In this document: piece after piece, positions 1 through 10,406 of the stretch
Layout: each line of letters starts with the position of its first letter
How positions within the stretch are numbered: the stretch's first letter is position 1
DNA from: an uncultured Candidatus Rokubacteria bacterium
Lineage (GTDB): Bacteria > Methylomirabilota > Methylomirabilia > Rokubacteriales > CSP1-6
Length of the DNA stretch: 64,000 bases
Direction of reading: 5' to 3'
Assembly: GCA_963758635.1 (NCBI GenBank)
Contig: CAVWWD010000002.1
Location: 82,724 to 146,723 of the forward strand
Notes under the pieces: generated by a model
The model's input: the letters and a program-made list of their open reading frames with translations, nothing else
Told to the model about the DNA's origin: nothing
Database searches by the model: none
Position numbers and translations under genes: made by a program

Positions 1-171
1 GTGCTGACGCTGGTGGTGGTCGGGGTGCTGCTCTGGCTGCTGAACAACTACGTGCCCATGGATGGGAAGATCAAGTCGATCGTCAACGTCGTGGTTGTCA
101 TCGTCGTTGTGATCTGGGTGTTGCAGGCCGTCGGCCTTCTCGGGTCCTTGCAGAACATCCGTATTCGGTGA
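1..171 (+). CDS. Small two-TM membrane protein, 5' end outside window (Thivi_2564-like)
   Basis: Frame 1 reads VLTLVVVGVLLWLLNNYVPMDGKIKSIVNVVVVIVVVIWVLQAVGLLGSLQNIRIR*; two hydrophobic helices. Confidence 0.75.
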   Translation: MLTLVVVGVLLWLLNNYVPMDGKIKSIVNVVVVIVVVIWVLQAVGLLGSLQNIRIR

Positions 172-304: not shown

Positions 305-2167
305 TCAGGCGTTCGCGGTGCCCTGCGCGGCCAGGAGCGCGGTGAGCGTGTCGCGATCCACGACTTCCTGTTCGATCAGCACCTTCGCCAGCGTCTCGAG
401 CACGTTCCGCTTCGCGGTCAGCGTTTCCCGGACGCGATCGTGGCCCGCCTGCAGCAGGGCCCGGACCTCCCGGTCGATCATCCGGGCCGTGTCCTCGCTG
501 TACACCCGCTCGGTGGGGTTCGGACCGTTGAGGAACAGCGCCTGGCGAGGACGCTCGAACGTTCCCAGGCCCAGCGCATCGCTCATCCCGTATTGCGTCA
601 CCATGTGCCGCACGAGATCGCTCGCCCGCTGCAGATCGTCGTGCGCCCCTGTCGAGACATCCCCGAAGATGATCTCCTCGGCGACCCGCCCGCCGAGGAG
701 CACGTCCAGCCGGTCCAGGAGCTCCGCCCGCGTCATCAGGTACCGATCCTCCGTCGGCTGCTGCTGCGTGTAGCCAAGCGCCGCCACCCCGCGCGGAATG
801 ATCGATATCTTGGCCACCTTGTCGGCCCGTTCCCGCGACTCGGCGACCAGAGCGTGGCCGGCCTCGTGGTGAGCGACGATCTCCTTCTCCTTGGGGCTGA
901 TGATCCGCGACTTGCGCTCGAGACCCCCGACGATCCGGTCGATGGCCTGGTCGAAGTCCGCGGCGTCCACCGCCTCCTTGTCCTCGCGCGCGGCGTGGAG
1001 CGCCGCCTCGTTGACGAGGTTCGCGAGGTCGGCGCCCACGAATCCCGGTGTGCGCGCCGCGATGAGGGACAGGTCGAGTGCCGGGGCCAGCGTGACCGTT
1101 CGCGTGTGGACCTGGAGGATCTTGGTCCGGCCCTTGAGGTCCGGTCGATCGATGACCACCTGACGGTCGAATCGACCGGGGCGCAGGAGGGCCTGATCGA
1201 GGATCTCCGGGCGATTGGTGGCGGCGAGGATGATGACGCCGGCTCGCGAGTCGAACCCATCGAGCTCCGCGAGGAGCTGGTTGAGGGTCTGCTCGTGTTC
1301 GTCGTGTCCCCCGAAGCCGGGGGTGATCCCCCGAGCCTTTCCGACGGCATCCAGCTCGTCGATGAACACGATGCTCGGCGCCTTCGTCTGCGCCTGGGCG
1401 AACAGGTCGCGCACGCGGGCGGCTCCCACACCGACGAACATCTCCACGAAGTCGGATCCGTTCAGGCTGAAGAAGGGGACTCCCGCTTCCCCGGCCACGG
1501 CCTTGGCCAGCAGGGTCTTCCCGGTTCCCGGCGCCCCGACCAGCAGCACTCCCTTCGGGATCTTTCCGCCGAGTCGCCGGTAGCGCTCGGGCCTCTTCAA
1601 GAAGTCCACGATCTCCATCAGCTCACCGCGGGCCTCGTCGATGCCCGCGATGTCGTCGAACGACACCCCCGTCTTCTGCTCGACGTAGACCTTGGCCCGG
1701 CTCTTGCCGAGGCTCATGAGCCCCTTCTGCGGATTCATTCGGCTCACGAGGAAGAACCAGAGGCCGAAGAAGATCGCTGTCGGCACGATCCATGACAGAA
1801 GGGTGAAGAGCCACGTGCTCTCGGTATGCCCCGTGAAGCGGACGCGTGCGACTTCGAGCTCGGGCACGAGGGCGGCGTCCTCGACGCGCGTCGTCACGAA
1901 CGCGTACGTACCCTTCCCGAGGCGCTTGATCTTCTCGATCTTCTCCTTCGAAAGGATGGCGTCGAGGCCCGCGGGCGACAGCGCCCCTTCGATGGTGTCC
2001 CGGTACAGGGCCACCTCGGAGACTTTTCCCGCTTTCAGGAGGGCCTTGAACTCGCTGTACGAGATGTTGTCCGGATGGGGCGCCAGGAACAGCGCCTGGC
2101 CGCCCACGAAGACGGCGATCGCGATCAGTGCGTACCACACGGAGAACGTCCGCTGCTTCAGTTGCAT
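305..2167 (-). CDS. ftsH: ATP-dependent zinc metalloprotease FtsH
   Basis: Two TMs, Walker A GAPGTGKT, Walker [32 protein letters not shown] zinc motif. Confidence 0.97.
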
Positions 2168-2251: not shown

Positions 2252-2692
2252 CTACGGCACCTTCGACGAGAAGGTGACGCGTCGATTGGAGGCCCGGCAC
2301 GCCGCCGTGCTCTCCGTGCACGCGGGGCGCTCCCCGCTGCGTGACTGGATCTCGAGCCGATGCGCCTTCACGCCCCGCGACACGAGATAGGCCTCGGCCG
2401 CGCGCGCCCGGTCTCGGCCCACCTCCGCGCTGAGAGCGCGAGCTCCCGGCTCGTCGGTATGCCCCTCGATGAGGAGCCCCCGGTGTCCGGCCCGGCTGAG
2501 CCACACGACGTGGGCGTCGAGGACCGTTCTGTCACGCGGACGGATGTCCGTCGTCCCCGCATCGAAGTAGATCGGCTTCAGGGTCGTGGCGTTCACCGGC
2601 GCACCCTGCACTTGTGGATAGCTTGCGACAATGGCGACCAGGGCCATGACGACGGGAGCCACGAGACATGCGGTTCTCCAGCCTCTCGACAA
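2252..2692 (-). CDS. OmpA/Pal-family peptidoglycan-binding protein
   Basis: Signal-like N-terminus; IYFD, IEGHTD, RA..A..YL...GV, SxGERP, NRRV motifs. Confidence 0.85.
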   Translation of the reverse strand: MSRGWRTACLVAPVVMALVAIVASYPQVQGAPVNATTLKPIYFDAGTTDIRPRDRTVLDAHVVWLSRAGHRGLLIEGHTDEPGARALSAEVGRDRARAAEAYLVSRGVKAHRLEIQSRSGERPACTESTAACRASNRRVTFSSKVP

Positions 2693-2749: not shown

Positions 2750-2793
2750 AATCTAGTCTCTCGCCCGCTGCGTGCCTATTGGACCTTGGTCGC
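2750..2793 (-). promoter_or_regulatory. Palindromic activator site 1 (2780-2793) plus -10 TAGATT, upstream of OmpA-ftsH
   Basis: TGGACCTTGGTCGC; 24-nt gap to TAGATT (minus strand, 2755-2750). Confidence 0.7.
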
Positions 2794-2808
2794 CCTGCCG
2801 GTAGCCAC

Positions 2809-4879
2809 TCATCGCTCCTCCTCACGCCGCGCCGCGGCCCCGCTGGTGTCATCGTAGAGGCGGTCCTGGGCGCGAAGGGCGGGCTCGCCATCGGCCCGGA
2901 TGCGGACGGATCGACCGTCCGGGAGGATGCGCCGGGCCTTCACCGTGTCGGCGAGCTGGATCTCGAGGATCTCCTGGACGCGAGACTGCAGGCCGGGATC
3001 CAGCACCGGGAAGGCGATCTCCACCCGGCGGTCCAGGTTCCTGGGCATCCAATCCGCGGAGGCGAGGAGGCACTCCGGCTGCCCGGCGTTGGCGAAGTGG
3101 ACGATGCGCGCGTGCTCGAGGTACCGATCGACGATCGAAATGACCCGAACGTTGGCAGAGAGGCCCGGCACCCCGGGACGAAGGCAGCAGATGCCGCGCA
3201 CGATCAAATCAATCGTCACGCCCGCGCCGCTGGCGGCGTACAGCTCCTCGATCAGCCGGCGGTCCACGAGACCGTTCATCTTCGCGATGATCCGCGCCGG
3301 CCTCCCGGCCCTGGCATGGCCGGCCTCCCGGCGGATGCGCTGGACGAGCCCGTCGCGCAGATCGGCGGGCGCGACGAGCAGGTGATGGAAGCGGGGCGGC
3401 CGTGCGCAGCCGCTCAGGCGGTCGAACAGCTCGGTGACGTCCTCGCCGAACGAGACGCGGCTCGTGAAGAGGCCCAGGTCGCCGTAGAACGTCCCCCGTC
3501 CGCGCGTTGTAGTTGCCCGTGGCGAGGTGGCAGTAGAGCCGGACCCCGTCGGCTTCCTGCCGGACGACGAGGCAAGCCTTGCAGTGGGTCTTGTATCCCG
3601 GGAGGCCGTGGACCACGTGCGCACCCACCTTCTCGAGCTCGCGGGCCCAGCGGATGTTCGCCTCCTCGTCGAATCGGGCCTGGAGCTCGACGAGCACGGC
3701 CACCTTCTTCCCGTTCTCGGCCGCCGTGCGCAGGGCCTGGGCGATAGGCGAGGCCGGGCTCACCCGGTAGAGCGTCATCTTGATCGCGAGGACGGCGGGA
3801 TCGAGGGCGGCCTCGCGCACGAAGCGAGTGACGCTGGCGAAGGCCTGGTAGGGGTGATGCACGAGGACGTCCCTGGCGCGGATCGCGCTCCAGATGTCCG
3901 GCGCGCGCTCGAACGCCGCGACGGAGTGCGGCGGGCGCGGCCCCTCCTTGAGCCGGGGCAGGTCGACGGCGGCATAGAGCTGGAGCAGATCGGTGAAGGC
4001 CGTGAAGCCCGTGCTCGCGTAGAGGTCCTCGGGCGCCAGCTCCAGCTCGTCGACCAGCGTGGCCAGGACGTCGGCGGGCAGCTCCGCGTCGTACTCGAGG
4101 CGCACCGCGGCGCCGAGGCGGCGGTCGCGCAGGCTCGCCTCGATGCTCGCGATCAGATCCTCGGCGCGGCCCCGCGTCGCCAGGGTCGCGTCGCGAGTCA
4201 CGCGGATCGCGTGGCTCCATACGACATCGCGGCCTCCGTGGATGCCCGACAGGTACGGCCGGATCGCGTCCTCGAGCAGCATGAAGGCGTGCGGGCGAAC
4301 GGAATCGGGCACGGCCACGAAGCGCGGCAAGGCTGGGCTCGGCACGTGGATCACAGAAAGCGAGCTTGCGGCCATCGCCGAGGCGGCGGCCGGGCGGATC
4401 GAGGCGACGATACACAGCGATCGGTTGCCGAGGTAGGGGAAGGGACGGCCGGGGTCGACGGCCAGGGGCGTCAGCGTGCCGGGCAGCAGGCGACGGACGT
4501 GCTGTTCGACGAAGCGCCGCTGCTCGGCGGTAATGTCCTGGTGCCGGAGGAGGACGATGCCTTCCGCGGCGAGGAGCGGCAGGATCTCGAGGAAGCAGCG
4601 GCGGTGCTCGTCGACGAGCTCGTGGACCCGGCCCGCCACCGCCGCCAAGGTCTCCGCCGGCGTGAGCCCGTCGGGCCCCGCCTGCGCCTCGCCCGCGTCG
4701 ATGCGGCGCTTCAGCGCGGCCACGCGGACCATGAAGAACTCGTCCAGGTTCGCGCTGAAAATGGCCAGGAACTTCACGCGCTCGAGGAGGGGCACGCTCG
4801 GATCCTGTGCCTCCTCGAGCACCCGGCGATTGAACTCCAGCCAGGACAGCTCGCGATTGACGAACGCCGCCTCGGTCAC
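2809..4879 (-). CDS. ppk1: Polyphosphate kinase 1 (frameshift ~3497)
   Basis: NRELSWLEFNRRVL, HHPY, IKMTLYR, ARFDEEANI, KTHCK, RYLEHARI, SADWMPRNLDRRVE; split over two ORFs at a G5 run. Confidence 0.93.
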
Positions 4880-4880
4880 G

Positions 4881-5844
4881 TCAGTCCCGCGTATTGAACG
4901 TCTCACGCAGGAGGATGCCGTCACGGACTCCCCGCGTGCAGACGACGAGCGTCAGGTATCCGCCGAAGACCATGGTCTCCTCGATCACCATTGCTCCAGC
5001 CAGGATGATGTCGGCGCGCTCGGACTTGAGGCCGGGGACCTTCTCACGGTCGTGGTGCGTGAGGCCTTCCAGGCGCTCGCGCACCGCCGTGACGTCGGAC
5101 TGTCGGAGCGAGAGCCCGTGGCGGTGCTTGCGGGCGCCGCGGCGGGCGCGGAGATGGACGCGGGCGAGGCTGCGCACGATGCCGCCGAGGCCGACCAGGA
5201 CCTCGCCGGGCGCAGCGACGGGCAGAGCGCCTCGGAGCTGCTCGCGGATGGCGCCCCGGAGGGCGTGGACCTCGCGTGGGGTGGGCGGATCGTGCCGGAG
5301 AAGACCTCGCGTGCTGCGGATGGCTCCAAGCGGGAGGCTCGCGCTGGACACGATCCTGCGCGCCCGGACCCGGCTGAGCTGCAGGCTGGCGCCGCCGAGG
5401 TCCGCGACGGCCCCGTCCTTGAAGGGGAGGCTCTCGAGCGCCGCGCAGACACCCAGCCGCGCCTCGTCCCGGGCGCTCAGCACGTGCACCGTGATGCCCT
5501 CGTTGCAACGGAGGGGATGGAGCAACTGTTCCTGGTTGCGCGCGTCCCGGACGGCCGAACGTCGCCACCGCCACGACGCGCGGGCCACCGCCACTCGGCG
5601 AGACCCGCGCCATGAAGTGGTGGACGGCCCGAAGGGTCTGGTCGATCGCCGCGCGGGGCAACGTGCCGGGCGGGCCGCCACCCAGCCGGGTCGGCACCCG
5701 TTCCTCCGCCAGCACACGGTAGCCGGTGCCCGGGGTGATCCGGGCGAGCAGAAAGCGAACGGCGGTCGATCCCAGATCGACCACGGCCACCAGCTCCGCC
5801 CGCTCAGCCACGCGAGGGCGCACAGGTTCCGAGATCCACGACAC
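4881..5844 (-). CDS. ppx: Ppx/GppA exopolyphosphatase (frameshift ~5560)
   Basis: VDLGSTAVR, VAT-SAVRDARN, EARLG, DLGGASLQ, SLPLG, RADII.AG, GVRDG; GGAGG RBS before GTG. Confidence 0.88.
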
Positions 5845-5940
5845 TCCTCCTTCAGGGGCGGCCGCCAGTCCCGATATCCGCCCCACACCCGGAAGGCCCC
5901 AAGCGCGGACCAGCATGAGAAGGAGATCGCGATCGCCTGC

Positions 5941-6015
5941 ACTCTAGCCAGGCCGATTCACCCCGCCCATTGGACCTTCGTCCAGTGTTCTGCCCGTGGA
6001 GTCGATCCTTAGACT
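5941..6015. promoter_or_regulatory. Palindromic site 2 (5971-5984) serving divergent promoters
   Basis: TGGACCTTCGTCCA; TAGAGT on minus strand (5946-5941, gap 24) and TAGACT on plus strand (6010-6015, gap 25). Confidence 0.75.
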
Positions 6016-6077
6016 GTGGGGGTGGGGAAGACGTCGCGGCGGCGGTTCGATACCTGGGTTGAAATCGGGAGAGAGAC

Positions 6078-6425
6078 GTGGCAGAGATAAGCGGCCTCAT
6101 GACGGAGCTCAATGACCTTCGCGAGCAGAAGCATCTGACGTGGAGCGAGCAGGAGGCCGGATGGATCGGGACGCCGGCCGCGATCTTGGACGCGCTCGTC
6201 CGTGATGGATACGAGGAGTGCCAGCGCGAGACCACGACGAGTCATCGCGATGGCCGCCCGGCCGGCGGCCTCTGGCGGGGAGTCAACCCGCGCACGGGAT
6301 CCGTGGCGTCGGCGATCTGGGTGACGCGCCCGGCGGCGGCAGCCTTGGTGTTCATCCAGATCGATGGGGAACTGGTGGCACGACCGGGGAGGGGGCCGCA
6401 TGAGGAGGAAGGCGGGCAGGGCTGA
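6078..6425 (+). CDS. Hypothetical protein (115 aa)
   Basis: ORF with GGGAGAG RBS, globular composition, downstream of site 2. Confidence 0.65.
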   Translation: MAEISGLMTELNDLREQKHLTWSEQEAGWIGTPAAILDALVRDGYEECQRETTTSHRDGRPAGGLWRGVNPRTGSVASAIWVTRPAAAALVFIQIDGELVARPGRGPHEEEGGQG

Positions 6426-6466
6426 CGCTTGCCGGGCCGCAGGCTCGAATCTATGAGGAGGCCACA

Positions 6467-6529
6467 ATGAAGAACGTTTCTACGATGACTCTGCCGTGCC
6501 CCCAGGTCCCGTGGGGCCGCCGCCGATGA
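6467..6529 (+). CDS. Putative 20-aa peptide coupled to the desaturase
   Basis: GAGGAGG RBS, MKNVSTMTLPCPQVPWGRRR*, ATGA overlap with the desaturase start. Confidence 0.35.
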   Translation: MKNVSTMTLPCPQVPWGRRR

Positions 6530-7278
6530 TCGAGCTCGGGATCATCTTCCTTGTGACCATGGCGCTCACGCAGACCGCGGTCCTCGCCACGACGGTCTAC
6601 CTGCATCGCGCCCTCGCGCATCGCGCCCTCGTCGTCCACCCGGTCACGGACGTCTTCTTCCGGACCGCCCTCTGGCTCACGACGGGCTTGAGCCGCCAGC
6701 AGTGGGTGGCTGTCCATCGCAAGCATCACGCCTTCACCGACCGGGACGGCGATCCTCACAGCCCGCGGCTGCAAGGCATCTGGCACGTCCAGATCCTGAA
6801 CGCCTACTACTACATGCGGGAGGCACGGAACCCCGAGACGCTGCGGAAGTTCGCGGCGGACCTCCCCGAAGACCGGCTGGATCGCCTGCTCTTCTCCCGG
6901 GGCTGGTGCGGCCTCGGGATCGGGATCACGCTGCTTTGCCTCGTCCTCGGTTTCTGGCCCGGACTCATCGCCAGCCTCGTGCATGCCATCCAGTACGTCT
7001 TCATCGTGGCCCCGCTCATCAACGGCCTGGGACATTGGCGAGGAGCACAGAACTTCGCGAGCAACACCGCGTACAATTCACGCGTGCTCGCCTGGCTGAC
7101 GGGGGGCGAAAGCCTCCACAACAACCACCATGCGCATCCGCGGGCGCCCAAGTTCAGCATGAGACGCTTCGAGTTCGATCCGGCGTGGCTCGTGATCCGC
7201 GCCCTGGCGCGAATCCGTGCCCTCGCGATCCTCGGGACGACGGTCAGGCTGCAGACCGGCGCGGGGCCGGCGCGGTGA
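6526..7278 (+). CDS. Fatty acid (delta-9-type) desaturase
   Basis: His boxes HRALAH, HRKHH, HNNHH; DGDPHSP; GESLHNNHHA. Confidence 0.93.
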   Translation: MIELGIIFLVTMALTQTAVLATTVYLHRALAHRALVVHPVTDVFFRTALWLTTGLSRQQWVAVHRKHHAFTDRDGDPHSPRLQGIWHVQILNAYYYMREARNPETLRKFAADLPEDRLDRLLFSRGWCGLGIGITLLCLVLGFWPGLIASLVHAIQYVFIVAPLINGLGHWRGAQNFASNTAYNSRVLAWLTGGESLHNNHHAHPRAPKFSMRRFEFDPAWLVIRALARIRALAILGTTVRLQTGAGPAR

Positions 7279-7361
7279 CCGTGGACGGCGGGGAGCGCGC
7301 CACGCGCGACGACCGCGCACCCTCGAATGGATCGACCCTGAATGTCTCGAAGGGGAGGGAC

Positions 7362-7730
7362 ATGCAGGCACTGAAACGGATCGGCCCGCCCGTGCCGACG
7401 GGTGTGCGCGGCGACGAATACGACCTGAGCGTTCCCCTGAACGGCACGCCTTCCGTGGACTGGCGGCGCGCGTTCCACGCCTCCGAGAAATCGACCGAGC
7501 TGTGCCATCCGACTCGCGTCACGGTGAAGGACCGCGCGCTGACCTTCACGAGCGAGGAAGACCACGTGCGACTGTGGATCCAGCTCATCGACGAGTGGAT
7601 TGCTGGCGCGAATCAAGCGTGCGCCGAGCGGCCCACCTCCACGTCGAGACGCGAGGTCGAGCAGAGCGACGACGAGCGCGAGCGCCAGCGGCGGATTCGG
7701 GAGGCGGTGGAACGCTTCAAGAACCTGTGA
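7362..7730 (+). CDS. Hypothetical protein (122 aa)
   Basis: GGGGAGG RBS, MQALKRIG...; C-terminal charged helix. Confidence 0.65.
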   Translation: MQALKRIGPPVPTGVRGDEYDLSVPLNGTPSVDWRRAFHASEKSTELCHPTRVTVKDRALTFTSEEDHVRLWIQLIDEWIAGANQACAERPTSTSRREVEQSDDERERQRRIREAVERFKNL

Positions 7731-7750
7731 CGCTCGCTCGAGACGGCCCC

Positions 7751-7794
7751 TGGACCAAGGTCCAGTAGGGCCACCCTGCCCGCTGCTGTAGCCT
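7751..7794 (+). promoter_or_regulatory. Palindromic site 3 (7751-7764) plus -10 TAGCCT
   Basis: TGGACCAAGGTCCA; 24-nt gap; TAGCCT at 7789-7794. Confidence 0.8.
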
Positions 7795-7826
7795 GACCTC
7801 ACCGAGGACGCACGAAGGAGGAGACC

Positions 7827-8087
7827 ATGCACGTTCTACTCTTCATCCTGATCGGGTTGGTGGCAGGCGCGCTGGCCGGGCGGGTGGTGAGCGGCCATGG
7901 CTACGGCATGGTGGGGAACTTCGTCGTCGGAGTTCTCGGCGCCGTCCTGGGCGGATGGATGTTCACCACCTTCGCCGGCGTGACGAGCGGAGGAGTGTCC
8001 TTCAGCCTCTTCACGGCGCTCCTCGGCGCGGTCGCGCTGCTCTGGGTCGTCAGGCTGGTCGCCCCCGCCCGCGGCTTGAACCCCTGA
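7827..8087 (+). CDS. GlsB/YeaQ/YmgE family stress membrane protein
   Basis: IGLVAGALAG..G.G...N.VVGVLGAVLGG...ALLGAV.LLW pattern; AAGGAGG RBS. Confidence 0.9.
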   Translation: MHVLLFILIGLVAGALAGRVVSGHGYGMVGNFVVGVLGAVLGGWMFTTFAGVTSGGVSFSLFTALLGAVALLWVVRLVAPARGLNP

Positions 8088-8118
8088 AACCACACTCGAT
8101 GTCTCGAGGAGGCCACCA

Positions 8119-8361
8119 ATGCTGCGTTTCATCTTGGGGGCGATCATGGGCGGTGTCGCGGTCTGGGCATGGCGAGACGAGCTCCGTGAGTACATCGCCG
8201 ACGGCACCCGCGGCCTGAGGACGACGGCGGCCGACCAGCTCCAGGCGGTCCAGACAGCCGCGGAGGGCGCACTCAACACCGCGAGGGATGGGATCAGCTC
8301 CGGCCTGCAAAGTGGGCAGGACGCGATCCGCCCGGAGGACGCATCGCGACCGGCACGATAG
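8119..8361 (+). CDS. Small membrane-anchored helical protein (YtxH/general-stress-like)
   Basis: N-terminal TM FILGAIMGGVAVW followed by amphipathic helix; GAGGAGG RBS. Confidence 0.7.
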   Translation: MLRFILGAIMGGVAVWAWRDELREYIADGTRGLRTTAADQLQAVQTAAEGALNTARDGISSGLQSGQDAIRPEDASRPAR

Positions 8362-8401
8362 TCCGTTCCCGCTCCGAACACCCGCACGAGGAGGAACCGT
8401 C

Positions 8402-8635
8402 GTGAATAGAGCATCCGCGCTTCCCGTGGCCGTCCACGTGCCACACCTGTTCCCTCGAGCCCTGGTCCGGACGGCAAGGTCGGGGATCTATCTCGTCCGT
8501 GGGGTTCCACGCGACCTGCAGCGCACGGCGCGCGCCCGGGCGGCGCGGGAGACGACCACCTTGAGCGCCGTGCTCCGGCAGGCCTTGCGCGAGTACGCCG
8601 CCGGTACCTGGACGCCCGAACCCGCCGACACATGA
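8402..8635 (+). CDS. Putative ribbon-helix-helix DNA-binding protein
   Basis: YLVRGVPRDLQRTARARAARETTTLSAVLRQALREY fits the strand-helix-helix pattern; GAGGAGG RBS. Confidence 0.6.
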   Translation: MNRASALPVAVHVPHLFPRALVRTARSGIYLVRGVPRDLQRTARARAARETTTLSAVLRQALREYAAGTWTPEPADT

Positions 8636-8666
8636 TGTGACGGCCGTTGCGCGGCCGTTGCGGCAC

Positions 8667-8710
8667 TGGACCTTGGTCCACTACCGTCTTTGCGGCGCCG
8701 GCTAGAGACT
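8667..8710 (+). promoter_or_regulatory. Palindromic site 4 (8667-8680) plus -10-like GAGACT
   Basis: cacTGGACCTTGGTCCActac; 24-nt gap to GAGACT. Confidence 0.75.
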
Positions 8711-8754
8711 GACGTAGGGATCCGCCAAGAGAGCGGCCCTGGAGGAGGTGTCTC

Positions 8755-9126
8755 ATGCGAGTGCCAGTGTGGATCAAACCGATGGTATGGGGCGGCGTCT
8801 TGGGCGCGATCGGGATCATGATTGTCGGATTCTCCTGGCTGGGGTGGACGCTCGACCACACGACCAAGAGACTCGTGACGGAAGGCAGCGAGTCGGCCGT
8901 GGTCACTGCGCTGACTCCGTTCTGCGTCGCGAACTACATGAAGCAGCCCGACGCCGCTCAGAAGCTCGCCGTGCTCCGCGCCGACTCCTCGTCGTACACA
9001 CAGCGCGAGATCATCGAAAAGGCCGGATTCGCAACCATGCCCGGAAAGACCGAACCAAGCTCAGGACTGGCGGCGGCCTGTGCGACCGCGCTTCAGACCG
9101 TCAGCCTTGCCGTCCCGAGCAAGTAG
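8755..9126 (+). CDS. Hypothetical membrane-anchored protein with two Cys
   Basis: GGAGGAGG RBS; N-terminal TM; PFC...AAAC. Confidence 0.8.
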   Translation: MRVPVWIKPMVWGGVLGAIGIMIVGFSWLGWTLDHTTKRLVTEGSESAVVTALTPFCVANYMKQPDAAQKLAVLRADSSSYTQREIIEKAGFATMPGKTEPSSGLAAACATALQTVSLAVPSK

Positions 9127-9428
9127 TCGACGATAAGGCCACGCGGCCGCGCGCTCGGGCGGAGACGCCCGGGCCGCGCCGCCTCAGGCCTACTCGTCCG
9201 TCCGCCTTGCGGGCGTGAAACGCCAGGCGGAGCTCCGCAGCGGATCAGCCGCGCGGGTCAAGAGATCGATCCCGTCGGGCCACGCACATACTCGCGCTCG
9301 ATCTCCGCGATGATCTCGCGGCGCTCAGAACGGGTCCACCATTCGCTCGTCCTACGACGGGACGCAGAACTCGGCCGTCATAGCGGAGGTCGGCTCGCCG
9401 CCGCTCCGGCGCGTGCTGACCCGCGCAC

Positions 9429-9473
9429 TGGACCAAGGTCCACTACGTTGCCCACGCGGGTGGCTGCTAGGCT
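9429..9473 (+). promoter_or_regulatory. Palindromic site 5 (9429-9442) plus -10 TAGGCT
   Basis: cacTGGACCAAGGTCCActac; 25-nt gap; TAGGCT at 9468-9473. Confidence 0.8.
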
Positions 9474-9577
9474 GATGGCGTTCGCGCCACACCCACGGTT
9501 CGCGCACGAGACGATCCGATCGCGCCGGAGCCACACAGTCGGTGAACATATCGGACGATGCGCTCGGGAGGCCCTCC

Positions 9578-9766
9578 ATGGCGAAGTTCATCCAGATCTG
9601 CGCATCACAGAACGATCTGTTCGCTCTCGACCAGGACGGGGGCGTCCATCAGTACGACTTCAACACGAAGACGTGGGCGCAGCTCGCCCTGGACCGCCGC
9701 GACGAGGCGCCTTCGCGAAGTGACCGTCAGGCGAGCGGCGGCGCGCCGTGGGGGAGGCCGCCGTGA
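9578..9766 (+). CDS. Small hypothetical beta-rich protein (62 aa)
   Basis: GGGAGG RBS; MAKFIQICASQNDLFALDQDGGVHQYDFNTKTW resembles a single propeller blade. Confidence 0.65.
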   Translation: MAKFIQICASQNDLFALDQDGGVHQYDFNTKTWAQLALDRRDEAPSRSDRQASGGAPWGRPP

Positions 9767-9899
9767 TCTCCGGCGATTGCCCCAGTCAGATGGCTATCCC
9801 GTCGCAGTCTTCGCGTCCGCCCGTGAGTTCCTCGCCTCCGGGCCGCTCGGTCGCCTCGGCTGCCTCGTCCTGGACATCCGCCTCGGGGAGATGACGGGC
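9765..9899 (+). pseudogene. FixJ-like receiver-domain fragment
   Basis: QSDGYPVAVFASAREFLASGPLGRLGCLVLDIRLGEMTG contains the phosphoacceptor Asp context; no start, no C-terminal half. Confidence 0.65.
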
Positions 9900-9923
9900 G
9901 GTTACCGCATTCTACGAGGGTCA

Positions 9924-10127
9924 TCAGACCTGCACGAGCGCCTTCCCGTTGGCCCCGAGCCACTCCACCACCTTGGCCCACGCAACAGGCTCCCGCTCCG
10001 TCCATGCCCTCACCGCCTGGGCGGGAACGACCACGTATGCGCGCTCAGGGTGCGCGGCCGCTTCCACCAGGCGGGCGAGATCGGTTCGGGATTGTCGAAG
10101 CTCCACGAGCAAGTCGCTGGTCGTCAT
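9924..10127 (-). CDS. Small hypothetical protein (67 aa)
   Basis: AGGAGA RBS, MTTSDLLVELRQ...; downstream of site 6. Confidence 0.65.
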   Translation of the reverse strand: MTTSDLLVELRQSRTDLARLVEAAAHPERAYVVVPAQAVRAWTEREPVAWAKVVEWLGANGKALVQV

Positions 10128-10218
10128 GAGTTCTCCTGGGAATGCAGCAATGGATTCAGCACCGGTCGGCAGCACGGGGTCGCGACCCTCACCCCGGCTT
10201 GGAGTGCGCCCTCTCGGG

Positions 10219-10262
10219 AGCCTATCTGGCCGCTCGTCGGCGCGCCATTGGACCTTGGTCAG
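10219..10262 (-). promoter_or_regulatory. Palindromic site 6 (10249-10262) plus -10 TAGGCT
   Basis: TGGACCTTGGTCAG; 24-nt gap to TAGGCT (minus strand, 10224-10219). Confidence 0.75.
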
Positions 10263-10406
10263 GGAGCGCTCCGCTCCCTGATACTCACGCAGTCGTGATC
10301 GGCGAGGCCGCCCGGCTCATCAGCCGTGCTCAGGTTTCAGGGAGGCTCCGGGTTGTTGGCGACAACTCCAGATAGCGCGCTGGCGGTGCCGGACCCGCGA
10401 CCGAGC

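Follow-up and report, generated by a model that had tools for sequence, protein, structure and literature searches.

A polar 20-bp palindrome in a Rokubacterium and other bacteria is the probable operator of a FixJ/StyR-like response regulator

The set of palindromes described here marks a real regulon. Judged from sequence comparison, the palindromes are probably the operator of a FixJ/StyR-like two-component response regulator of the NarL/LuxR superfamily, which would activate from a 20-bp site. The pair of regulator and site is present across many bacterial phyla and, it seems, has yet to be described. We analyzed a 64,000-nucleotide stretch of DNA (the window) from an uncultured soil Rokubacterium and scanned the whole genome (6.17 Mb, 87% complete).

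Palindromes and their promoters

A previous sequence-only reading had proposed that six intergenic 14-mers in the window, each at a fixed distance from a -10-like hexamer, form one regulon. All six were verified as written, at positions 2780, 5971, 7751, 8667, 9429, and 10249, and each of the seven hexamers was found 24 to 25 nt from its 14-mer.

2750..2755, minus strand: -10-like TAGATT, spacer of 24 to site 1
2780..2793, minus strand: site 1, GCGACCAAGGTCCA in promoter orientation, matrix score 20.4
5941..5946, minus strand: -10-like TAGAGT, spacer of 24 to site 2, facing ppx-ppk1
5971..5984, unstranded: site 2, TGGACCTTCGTCCA, scores 27.9 (+) and 30.8 (-)
6010..6015, plus strand: -10-like TAGACT, spacer of 25 to site 2, facing the 115-aa gene and the desaturase
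7751..7764, plus strand: site 3, TGGACCAAGGTCCA, score 32.1, the best of the genome
7789..7794, plus strand: -10-like TAGCCT, spacer of 24 to site 3, facing GlsB
8667..8680, plus strand: site 4, TGGACCTTGGTCCA
8705..8710, plus strand: -10-like GAGACT, spacer of 24 to site 4
9429..9442, plus strand: site 5, TGGACCAAGGTCCA
9468..9473, plus strand: -10-like TAGGCT, spacer of 25 to site 5
10219..10224, minus strand: -10-like TAGGCT, spacer of 24 to site 6, facing the 67-aa gene
10249..10262, minus strand: site 6, CTGACCAAGGTCCA in promoter orientation

Site 2 is common to two divergent promoters, and the distal half is degenerate in sites 1 and 6. The weakest of the seven hexamers is the GAGACT of site 4, for which TAGAGA at 8703-8708, with a spacer of 22 nt, is an alternative. 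The remark that the window holds no further copy was borne out, since TGGACCWWGGTCCA with up to two mismatches picks out the six sites and nothing else there. With up to three mismatches, TGGACCWWGGTCCA was enriched in the window (12 matches versus 4.6 expected, a number reached in 0 of 100 shuffles); the loose TGGAC-N4-GTCCA with up to two mismatches was not enriched there (32 matches versus 30.4 expected). Another three sites precede the window by a short distance (C2:81058, 82352, and 82468), which brings the cluster to nine sites in 12 kb.

Using our own crude GC3-based gene calls, on which the split between intergenic and coding DNA rests, we found six exact matches to TGGACCWWGGTCCA in the whole genome, all intergenic, nine with one mismatch (7 intergenic), and 49 with two mismatches (12 intergenic). 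By the same split, a genome-wide weight-matrix scan gave 38 intergenic strand-hits versus 3 coding ones at a score of at least 16, intergenic DNA making up 14.9% of the genome; instead of being equally frequent in coding DNA, the motif is thus biased toward intergenic DNA. The spacing was examined at offsets 10 to 37 in 50 oriented flanks from 25 intergenic sites. TANNNT started at offset 24 in 10 of the 50 flanks, at offset 25 in five, at offset 27 in one, and at the remaining offsets of this range in none, against a background rate of 0.0023 per position.

In full, the site reads (C)AY-TGGACC-AA-GGTCCA-ATAG, a 20-bp palindrome with a polarity. The centre is AA in 24 of 30 promoters, site 4 being an exception with TT in the promoter direction, and the ATAG flank lies on the promoter side. 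The promoter-side half and this flank are more conserved than the distal half, which is still conserved. Beyond the ATAG flank, the spacer between site and -10 carries no information, and the promoters have no recognisable -35 consensus. Provided that the hexamers are true -10 boxes, the site centre would fall at about -43.5, in agreement with the activator-type geometry proposed for the regulon, and transcripts presumably start about 7 nt past the hexamers.

Candidate regulator and its linkage to the site

The site belongs to a cassette composed of a sensor kinase, a FixJ-like regulator, the site itself, adjoining the regulator gene, and a single-domain receiver. Inside the phylum, relatives G003, G016, G020, G022, and G034 carry the site at the 3' end of the regulator gene or ahead of the kinase-regulator operon. 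Among 251 genomes, whose counts are phylogenetically non-independent, 67 have a close regulator orthologue and 184 do not; the exact 14-mer was present in 56 of the former versus 24 of the latter. In four of the 11 regulator-bearing genomes lacking the exact 14-mer, a looser pattern gave one to three sites each. The recognition helix, EKT[VI]K[VA]HR[AG]R[VA]M.KM, is nearly invariant in all 17 aligned regulators, the two of this genome included. With a FixJ-like regulator gene linked to the motif, the proposal of a NarL/FixJ-family binder is likely to be right.

The cassette is found in at least six phyla: Methylomirabilota, Betaproteobacteria, Acidobacteriota, Planctomycetota, Verrucomicrobiota, and Desulfobacterota. 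A cross-phylum scan with an 18-mer returned at least 121 stretches, and 33 of the 80 loci examined from it had TANNNT at offset 24. In Undibacterium, Vicinamibacterales, Phycisphaerales, Chthoniobacteraceae, and Syntrophobacteraceae, the site lies 28 to 130 nt past the regulator stop codon; the receiver gene comes next in three of these five and also in Caballeronia udeis. The earlier suggestion of a programme in a lineage without prior description therefore has to be widened: the site is shared by many phyla, with cultured Burkholderiaceae among its carriers.

Only two related regulators are encoded in this genome, both outside the window.

C6:77678-78322: RR1, FixJ/StyR-like regulator
C6:89971-90609: RR2, FixJ/StyR-like regulator

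StyR (1yio) was the best solved-structure match for RR1 and RR2 (1e-56 and 6e-54) and FixJ (5xso) the second best; the nearest NCBIfam model for the regulators was FixJ, at 217 to 224 bits, below its equivalog cut-off of 255. The sites adjoining RR1 and RR2 are of a variant form, GAGACC-WW-GGTCYC, and may belong to a parallel regulon. By tblastn, a close "group I" regulator of the kind that adjoins the motif in relatives was absent from this 87% complete genome, which is one of only three genomes with at least three exact sites but without a group I orthologue. The binder in this genome would be RR2, RR1, or an unassembled orthologue.

The absence of a group I regulator could also be read as a sign that another dimeric helix-turn-helix protein (CRP/FNR-type, or small and ribbon-helix-helix [RHH]-like) binds the palindrome and that the FixJ-like regulator is merely a target. 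An RHH-like protein of 59 to 69 aa is a conserved member of the regulon, and FNR-type class II sites are likewise built as 5-4-5 and placed near -41.5 to -43.5, which would suit the sites described here. We consider this unlikely: across six phyla, only the FixJ-like regulator, along with its kinase and receiver, constantly adjoins the site, while RHH-like and small proteins are missing from the cassettes in other phyla. Furthermore, the recognition helix of the regulator is as invariant as the site, and site presence follows regulator presence.

We thus infer that the FixJ-like regulator is both binder and activator. As a phosphorylated dimer, it would occupy the 20-bp site, with its centre at about -43.5, and from there bring in RNA polymerase at promoters in which a -10 box is present and a recognisable -35 is missing. 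The receiver whose gene the site would control might act in feedback, as a phosphate sink or a kinase inhibitor.

Relation to known systems

The sequence-only reading had compared the sites to the DosR/DevR box of Mycobacterium tuberculosis. Indeed, the two systems share a NarL/LuxR-type dimer, a palindrome of about 18 to 20 bp (20 bp here) with a GGAC...GTCC core (GGAC-N4-GTCC) and an A/T (W-W) centre, site control of the regulator's own operon, and Hsp20 (alpha-crystallin) genes among the targets. The hspX DosR box is described as centred at about -43.5, the position predicted here, beside a suboptimal -35 (PMC13486717), and in Rokubacteria the partner kinases of the regulator bear GAF domains. 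A true hypoxia/dormancy regulon of this type, in which a haem-GAF kinase would signal to a DevR orthologue that induces the genes as oxygen falls, is nevertheless very unlikely. In the Protein Data Bank, the motif-linked regulators are far nearer to StyR (1e-56) and FixJ (1e-48) than to DevR (1e-12), and FixJ is also their nearest NCBIfam model. The half-site is TGGACC here but GGGACT in the Dev box, given as G4G5G6A7C8T9 in PMC3177182, and one site is the usual number per promoter here, in contrast to DevR promoters, all of which carry tandem boxes, 2 to 4 of them (PMC3177182). The motif-linked kinases are of the HisKA type (PF00512), and their sensors differ by lineage (PAS, GAF, MASE1, or a Reg_prop propeller), the sensor part having no match among solved structures. 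Because the sensor domains vary, the hypoxia signal suggested earlier is not supported. Universal stress protein, nitroreductase, and nitrate-transport genes were not seen among the annotated targets.

StyS/StyR of Pseudomonas fluorescens ST (and, with it, TodS/TodT) resembles the system in the structural match of StyR to RR1 and RR2, and the sty/tod box is a 16-bp palindrome whose ACC-AT-GGT centre is similar to the site described here. Phosphorylated StyR is reported to activate as a dimer from a high-affinity site, STY2, about 40 bp upstream of the start, at about -40 (PMC2442086). However, StyR governs a single catabolic operon and does so with IHF and three sites, unlike the roughly 20 promoters of stress-type genes and the putative feedback receiver gene after the regulator found here.

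As for FixL/FixJ, likeness lies in the database matches, in the PAS-HisKA kinases of about 450 to 540 aa that adjoin the regulator in Burkholderiaceae and Syntrophobacteraceae, and in the neighbouring single-domain receiver gene, which resembles FixT of Caulobacter, a receiver-type feedback inhibitor. On the other hand, the scores stay under the FixJ cut-off, the sensors are variable here, and a fixK-type intermediate regulator was not seen; to our knowledge, rhizobial FixJ sites are not the palindrome found here. The lux box is likewise a 20-bp inverted repeat over the -35 region, from which a dimer with a LuxR-type helix-turn-helix recruits polymerase (PMC5001607), but LuxR is ligand-gated and lacks a receiver domain, whereas the system predicted here would be driven by phosphorylation.

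LuxR-type proteins can also repress, from sites within the core promoter (PMC5001607), and so does StyR-P, from other sites (PMC2442086). That the palindrome is a repressor operator, with the bound protein holding genes off until its release, is highly improbable in our case: the site is in every case located ahead of the core promoter, at a fixed 24 to 25 nt, and in none does it cover the -10 or the start region; this layout, together with the missing -35 consensus, is that of activator-dependent promoters. The probability is close to negligible that the better conserved promoter-side half (AAGGTCCAATAG) of this polar, mostly AA-centred site is, with ATAG, the -35-type element of an alternative sigma factor, given that the distal half is conserved too, the whole being a 20-bp palindrome, the mark of a dimer, that the 24 nt from the end of GGTCCA to the -10 exceed the gap of any sigma-factor promoter we know of, and that the gene accompanying the site encodes the regulator and not a sigma factor.

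Target genes and predicted output

The genes around the six sites of the window are the following.

305..2167, minus strand: ftsH (AAA + peptidase M41), predicted second gene of the site-1 operon
2252..2662, minus strand: OmpA-family protein, 136 aa; G016 orthologue 57% identical, behind a site
2809..4879, minus strand: ppk1, in two overlapping frames (3209-4879 and 2809-3624); G017 orthologue 69% identical, in an operon behind a site
4881..5942, minus strand: ppx (Ppx/GppA family); G017 orthologue 66% identical, sharing the ppk1 operon
6078..6425, plus strand: 115-aa protein, no family match
6511..7278, plus strand: fatty-acid desaturase; G003 orthologue 69% identical, directly behind a site
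7362..7730, plus strand: 122-aa protein, no family match
7827..8087, plus strand: GlsB/YeaQ-type protein (Transgly_assoc); G020 orthologue 66% identical, behind a site
8119..8361, plus strand: 80-aa protein, no family match
8426..8635, plus strand: 69-aa protein, weak RHH likeness; G017 orthologue 77% identical, within the ppx-ppk operon behind a site
8755..9126, plus strand: 123-aa protein, no family match
9542..9766, plus strand: 74-aa protein, no family match
9924..10127, minus strand: 67-aa protein, no family match; two G016 homologues (73% and 63% identical), both behind sites

Site 1 would drive the OmpA-like gene and ftsH. The desaturase, ppx with ppk and the RHH-like gene, GlsB, the 67-aa gene, OmpA-like, and MlaC genes lie behind sites in G003, G016, G017, or G020. 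The same promoter is thus kept on orthologues in other genera, in good agreement with the proposed co-control of ftsH, the OmpA-like gene, ppx-ppk1, the desaturase, GlsB, and the small proteins.

This genome has additional targets, namely two genes for Hsp20, one kinase operon, and AI-2E transporters. Among the targets in relatives are Hsp20 and FtsH, enzymes of polyphosphate, a desaturase, GlsB, the envelope proteins OmpA/MlaC, superoxide dismutase, and BON and MMPL proteins. The output is presumably a general stress or dormancy programme.

Contigs from RNA libraries span site 3 and therefore lend no support to a transcript start there. In three soil RNA libraries, the highest contig depth was seen over the 123-aa gene (8755..9126).

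Palindromic sites at a constant distance from predicted -10 boxes

The sequence-only reading had described six palindromes of the form TGGAC-N4-GTCCA, each at a fixed distance from a -10-like hexamer, and had taken them for a DosR-like dormancy or hypoxia regulon. All six 14-mers were found at the positions claimed (genes as predicted for each promoter):

2780, site 1, palindrome assigned to the OmpA-like gene and ftsH
5971, site 2, palindrome assigned to ppx-ppk1 and the desaturase gene
7751, site 3, palindrome assigned to the GlsB gene
8667, site 4, palindrome
9429, site 5, palindrome
10249, site 6, palindrome

A -10-like hexamer was likewise present 24 or 25 nt from every site on the gene side, giving seven promoters in all because site 2 serves a divergent pair; each promoter or divergent pair in the window has a single site. 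At up to two mismatches, the generic pattern TGGAC-N4-GTCCA was not enriched in the window (32 matches versus 30.4 expected). The specific sequence TGGACCWWGGTCCA matched 12 times at up to three mismatches, compared to 4.6 expected, a count reached by none of 100 shuffles, and its matches with at most two mismatches in the window were precisely the six reported sites.

We extended the analysis to the whole assembly (6.17 Mb, 71% G+C, 12 contigs, rated 87% complete, with the window on contig 2), which was split into intergenic and coding DNA by crude GC3-based gene calls made for the present analysis. All six exact 14-mers and 7 of the 9 one-mismatch copies were intergenic. A weight matrix of 21 columns, trained on 20 sites, gave 38 intergenic strand-hits at a score of at least 16 versus 3 in coding DNA, intergenic DNA amounting to 14.9%, and the palindrome is thus not equally common in genes. 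We then examined both flanks of the 25 intergenic sites with at most two mismatches. Of the 50 flanks, 10 had the hexamer TANNNT starting at offset 24, five at 25, and one at 27; none had it at any other offset between 10 and 37, for a background of 0.0023 per position. The fixed spacing between palindrome and hexamer is real.

Aligned by promoter direction, the sites form a 20-bp palindrome, (C)AY-TGGACC-WW-GGTCCA-RTR, that is polar: the promoter-side half and an ATAG flank are near-invariant, while the distal half can decay (sites 1 and 6). The symmetry is also broken at the centre, which in 24 of 30 promoters from the source genome and relatives (loci L021-L038) reads AA toward the -10 box. 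Site 4 is an exception with a TT centre, and its hexamer is also the poorest in the window (GAGACT, or TAGAGA two bases earlier). In the same 30 promoters, the 24-nt spacer carries nearly no information past ATAG, and there is therefore no -35 consensus. If the hexamer occupies -12 to -7, the palindrome would span -50 to -37, with its centre at -43.5. We examined the class II-type layout proposed for these promoters and found the distance to the predicted -10 box constant and a -35 consensus absent; contigs from soil RNA run across site 3, so that transcript starts cannot be read from them. In two relatives (L028 and L037, in G020 and G016), the spacer is itself conserved, reading ATAGGCnGGCCGGAnGnCGTCGAC followed by TAnnnT, and GTCGAC stands immediately ahead of the -10 box, where it may act as an extended -10 element or provide another, weak site.

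Paired sites occur in the source genome only at C11:169019/169066 and C2:82352/82468 and, among the loci of relatives, in G034. There, two perfect palindromes (L021:8561 and 8584), with 23 bp between their centres, are found just 3' of the regulator gene; this arrangement (C6) occurs twice, the second copy being on C14. A search of the literature with the motif letters returned two unrelated eukaryotic papers only and no bacterial one, logos in figures not being searchable.

Target genes and their conservation

The gene names given by the sequence-only reading were borne out by Pfam (FtsH, an OmpA-family protein, Ppx, Ppk1, a fatty-acid desaturase, and a GlsB-type protein). For seven small proteins of the window, neither Pfam nor NCBIfam gave a family; one of these shows a weak RHH likeness. 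Beyond the window, the source genome has three sites just upstream of it and about ten elsewhere.

Among the other genes downstream of sites in the source genome
Two Hsp20 genes
Operon of a 381-aa kinase, a GAF kinase, and a single-domain receiver
Two AI-2E-family transporters; MlaC
DedA/VTT protein with an acyltransferase
Additional small proteins without family

One of the outside sites (C2:82468), with TAGAGT at 24 nt, precedes the gene of a 62-aa Thivi_2564-family membrane protein, which occupies window positions 1-171 and begins 17 nt before the window. The ppk1 gene (2809-4879, minus strand) is broken into overlapping frames at 3209-4879 and 2809-3624, and an AI-2E transporter gene (C2:81137-82313) and an aldo-keto reductase gene (C10:335262-336110) are each in two pieces as well; these splits are probably single-base assembly errors rather than pseudogenes.

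Of 41 close relatives, 8 had the exact 14-mer, and across the phylum it was present in 80 of 251 genomes. By family, it was found in 68 of the 158 other genomes of the source genome's own family (f1), in 5 of 21, 4 of 21, and 2 of 6 genomes of three other families, and in none of the 15 and 20 genomes of two further ones. Copies per genome reached 14, and a reversed control pattern mostly gave 0 to 2. The architecture at the loci of relatives was unchanged, again with 24 nt to TANNNT, and the site is conserved upstream of orthologues in other genera (G003, G016, G017, and G020).

Orthologues found behind a site in relatives (percent identity)
Desaturase, G003, 69%
RHH-like gene, ppx, and ppk in one operon, G017, 77%, 66%, and 69%
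GlsB, G020, 66%
67-aa gene, G016, behind sites, 73% and 63%
OmpA-like gene, G016, 57%
MlaC, G003 and G016

In relatives, the targets extend to Fe/Mn superoxide dismutase, a BON protein, an MMPL transporter, and KaiC-like ATPases. A reading of the palindromes as repeats or mobile elements was ruled out, the sites being isolated 20-mers ahead of orthologous genes. These palindromes define a real, well-defined regulon with promoters of a predicted activator type. About 20 promoters and a candidate regulator make it a concrete gene set, which covers Hsp20, FtsH, polyphosphate enzymes, a desaturase, envelope proteins, and many small proteins without assigned function, and co-regulation offers a route to the function of the latter.

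Rokubacteria (Methylomirabilota) are abundant in soil, and we know of no cultured member. The literature searched yielded nothing relevant on a regulon, binding motif, response regulator, or stress response in Rokubacteria or Methylomirabilota. Eight soil metatranscriptome runs contained 29 to 38% of the words sampled from positions 5800-10400, and contigs of four runs span the genes, some with zero differences. In three soil RNA libraries, contig depth in the region peaked, by a wide margin, over the gene for a 123-aa protein without assigned family (8755-9126), at 42 to 54 versus about 5 to 15 for its neighbours. Expression in soil is plausible and DNA carry-over possible, and we claim neither expression nor co-expression.

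A candidate regulator in the phylum

Ten GerE-type matches were found in the source genome, two of which are FixJ/StyR-like response regulators:

C6:77678-78322, RR1
C6:89971-90609, RR2

Pfam assigns Response_reg and GerE domains to both and to the regulators that adjoin sites elsewhere, which is the NarL/FixJ (LuxR_C-type) architecture; the earlier guess at the family of the predicted binder holds. The best matches of RR1/RR2 among solved structures were StyR (1e-56) and FixJ (1e-48), followed by NarL (1e-17) and DevR (1e-12). In NCBIfam, the nearest model was FixJ (equivalog NF006900), with 218.6 bits for RR1, 223.7 for RR2, and 217.1 for the regulator of the relative G020, all of which fall short of the 255-bit threshold for FixJ proper.

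In relatives, a close-knit set of regulators (group I) adjoins the palindrome in the order GAF kinase, regulator, site, single-domain receiver, and at times an additional site lies ahead of the kinase-regulator operon. The GAF kinase is the orthologue of a kinase of the source genome (C11:58211-60703). To follow regulator and site through the 251 genomes, we counted as carriers those with a protein at least 60% identical to the G020 regulator. The exact 14-mer was present in 56 of 67 carriers versus 24 of 184 non-carriers, and three or more copies in 33 of 67 versus 3 of 184; these genomes are related and not independent, and Fisher values for the co-occurrence therefore overstate the case. 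Eleven carriers had no exact copy. A looser pattern gave one to three sites in each of the four of these that were rechecked, with sites on the regulator's own contig in three of the four, and zero sites in one regulator-free genome. Linkage, co-occurrence, and helix conservation (described below) together predict that the regulator binds the palindrome.

In the source genome, tblastn found RR1 and RR2 but nothing of group I, and the sites that adjoin RR1 and RR2 are of a variant form, GAGACC-WW-GGTCYC. Either RR1 or RR2 recognizes both forms of the palindrome, or a group I orthologue lies in the unassembled 13%. The variant occurs at C6:77559, 84812, and 89898, C7:418618, C8:758900, C11:245712, and C12:155476, often flanked by CAT...ATG. 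One copy precedes RR1 by 105 nt, one separates RR2 from a receiver gene, and one adjoins an MscS channel gene. An RR1 orthologue of G017 has the same variant upstream (L032:9398). The variant may mark a second, parallel regulon of a paralogous regulator.

Regulator and site in other phyla, and relation to known systems

We scanned one genome per prokaryote species for TGGACCAAGGTCCARTAG and found it in at least 121 stretches. By record title, the matches listed include Methylomirabilota, Binatia, Beta-, Gamma-, Delta-, and Alphaproteobacteria, Acidobacteriota, Verrucomicrobiota, and Planctomycetota; among them, many motif-bearing relatives are titled Rokubacteria or Methylomirabilota, and the cultured carriers include Paraburkholderia fungorum, P. 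haematera, Caballeronia glathei, C. udeis, and an Undibacterium. Among 80 of the loci, 33 had TANNNT at offset 24, 6 had it at 25, and 6 at 23.

The regulator was sought in ten genomes with TGGACCAAGGTCCARTAG. In five (Undibacterium, Vicinamibacterales, Phycisphaerales, Chthoniobacteraceae, and Syntrophobacteraceae), a FixJ-like regulator has its stop codon 28 to 130 nt ahead of the site and is itself preceded by a sensor kinase. After the site comes a gene for a single-domain receiver in Undibacterium, Phycisphaerales, Syntrophobacteraceae, and also C. udeis, and the complete order of kinase, regulator, site, and receiver is found in these four as well as in the relatives G003 and G020. By gene order this is a candidate feedback cassette of FixT-like or phosphate-sink type, the receiver-only gene being predicted to lie under the regulator's own site while adjoining kinase and regulator. 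In C. udeis, the exact 18-mer and the regulator are 0.6 kb apart, and a copy with one mismatch follows the regulator's stop by about 50 nt; the corresponding distances in P. haematera are 3.6 kb and about 150 nt. Site and regulator of P. fungorum share a contig, 17 kb apart, and linkage on one contig could not be established for the C. glathei and Aminicenantes genomes.

The recognition helix, EKT[VI]K[VA]HR[AG]R[VA]M.KM, is near-invariant in all 17 aligned regulators, including RR1 and RR2. Judged from sequence, this is the picture expected of a cognate pair, helix and operator both being invariant, and it is unusual for a two-component regulator to have an operator that varies so little between phyla. 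We lean, with some reserve, towards one deeply conserved "plug-in" switch in at least six phyla. Its parts would be a FixJ-like regulator whose recognition helix is invariant, a polar 20-bp operator, likewise invariant, that sits at -43.5, and a receiver gene for feedback, and each lineage would couple them to its own sensor kinases and stress genes. This switch would run the main stress/dormancy programme of uncultured Rokubacteria and would have gone undescribed despite its cultured carriers in Paraburkholderia, Caballeronia, and Undibacterium. Its main interest lies in invariance across phyla combined with testability, since the identical site and regulator in cultured and harmless Burkholderiaceae open the prediction to direct bench testing.

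As for mechanism, a phosphorylated regulator dimer on the palindrome at about -43.5 would recruit polymerase to promoters without a -35 box, and feedback would come from the receiver gene that follows the regulator. The palindrome presumably resembles the StyR/TodT box and the EL222 site. Comparable positions are reported for related activators: a cryo-EM study of DosR on an hspX scaffold places the box centre at about -43.5, alongside a suboptimal -35, and reports contacts with sigma region 4 and alpha (PMC13486717); StyR-P is described as activating PstyA via STY2, which precedes the start by about 40 bp (PMC2442086); and LuxR-type sites that overlap the -35 are reported to activate transcription (PMC5001607).

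The DosR label itself did not hold, and a hypoxia signal was not supported. DevR (3c3w) matched RR1 at 1.1e-12, compared to 1.8e-56 for StyR, and DevR was not among the matches of RR2 at 1e-10, so that neither is a DevR orthologue. Whereas DevR promoters are described as always having two to four tandem boxes (PMC3177182), those of the window are single-site and tandem sites are rare. The half-site TGGACC shares GGAC with the DevR half-site GGGACT, of which G5 and C7 are reported to be essential (PMC3177182), but differs in its outer and inner bases. We also considered the low-oxygen "lxa" motif of Burkholderia cenocepacia, which is given as an Anr-like TGA-N6-TCA and hence is a different site (PMC3721108).

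The kinases linked to the regulator have GAF or PAS domains and HisKA (PF00512), and a comparison of the sensor part with solved structures found no relative. Across lineages the sensor parts vary between PAS, GAF, MASE1, and beta-propeller, which disfavours a single fixed cue such as oxygen. Genes for KaiC-like double ATPases lie within the kinase-regulator operon of one relative (G032, L022:7157-8662) or right behind a site in another (G017, L025:11144-12673), a hint that some Rokubacteria may feed a KaiC-type input into the system.
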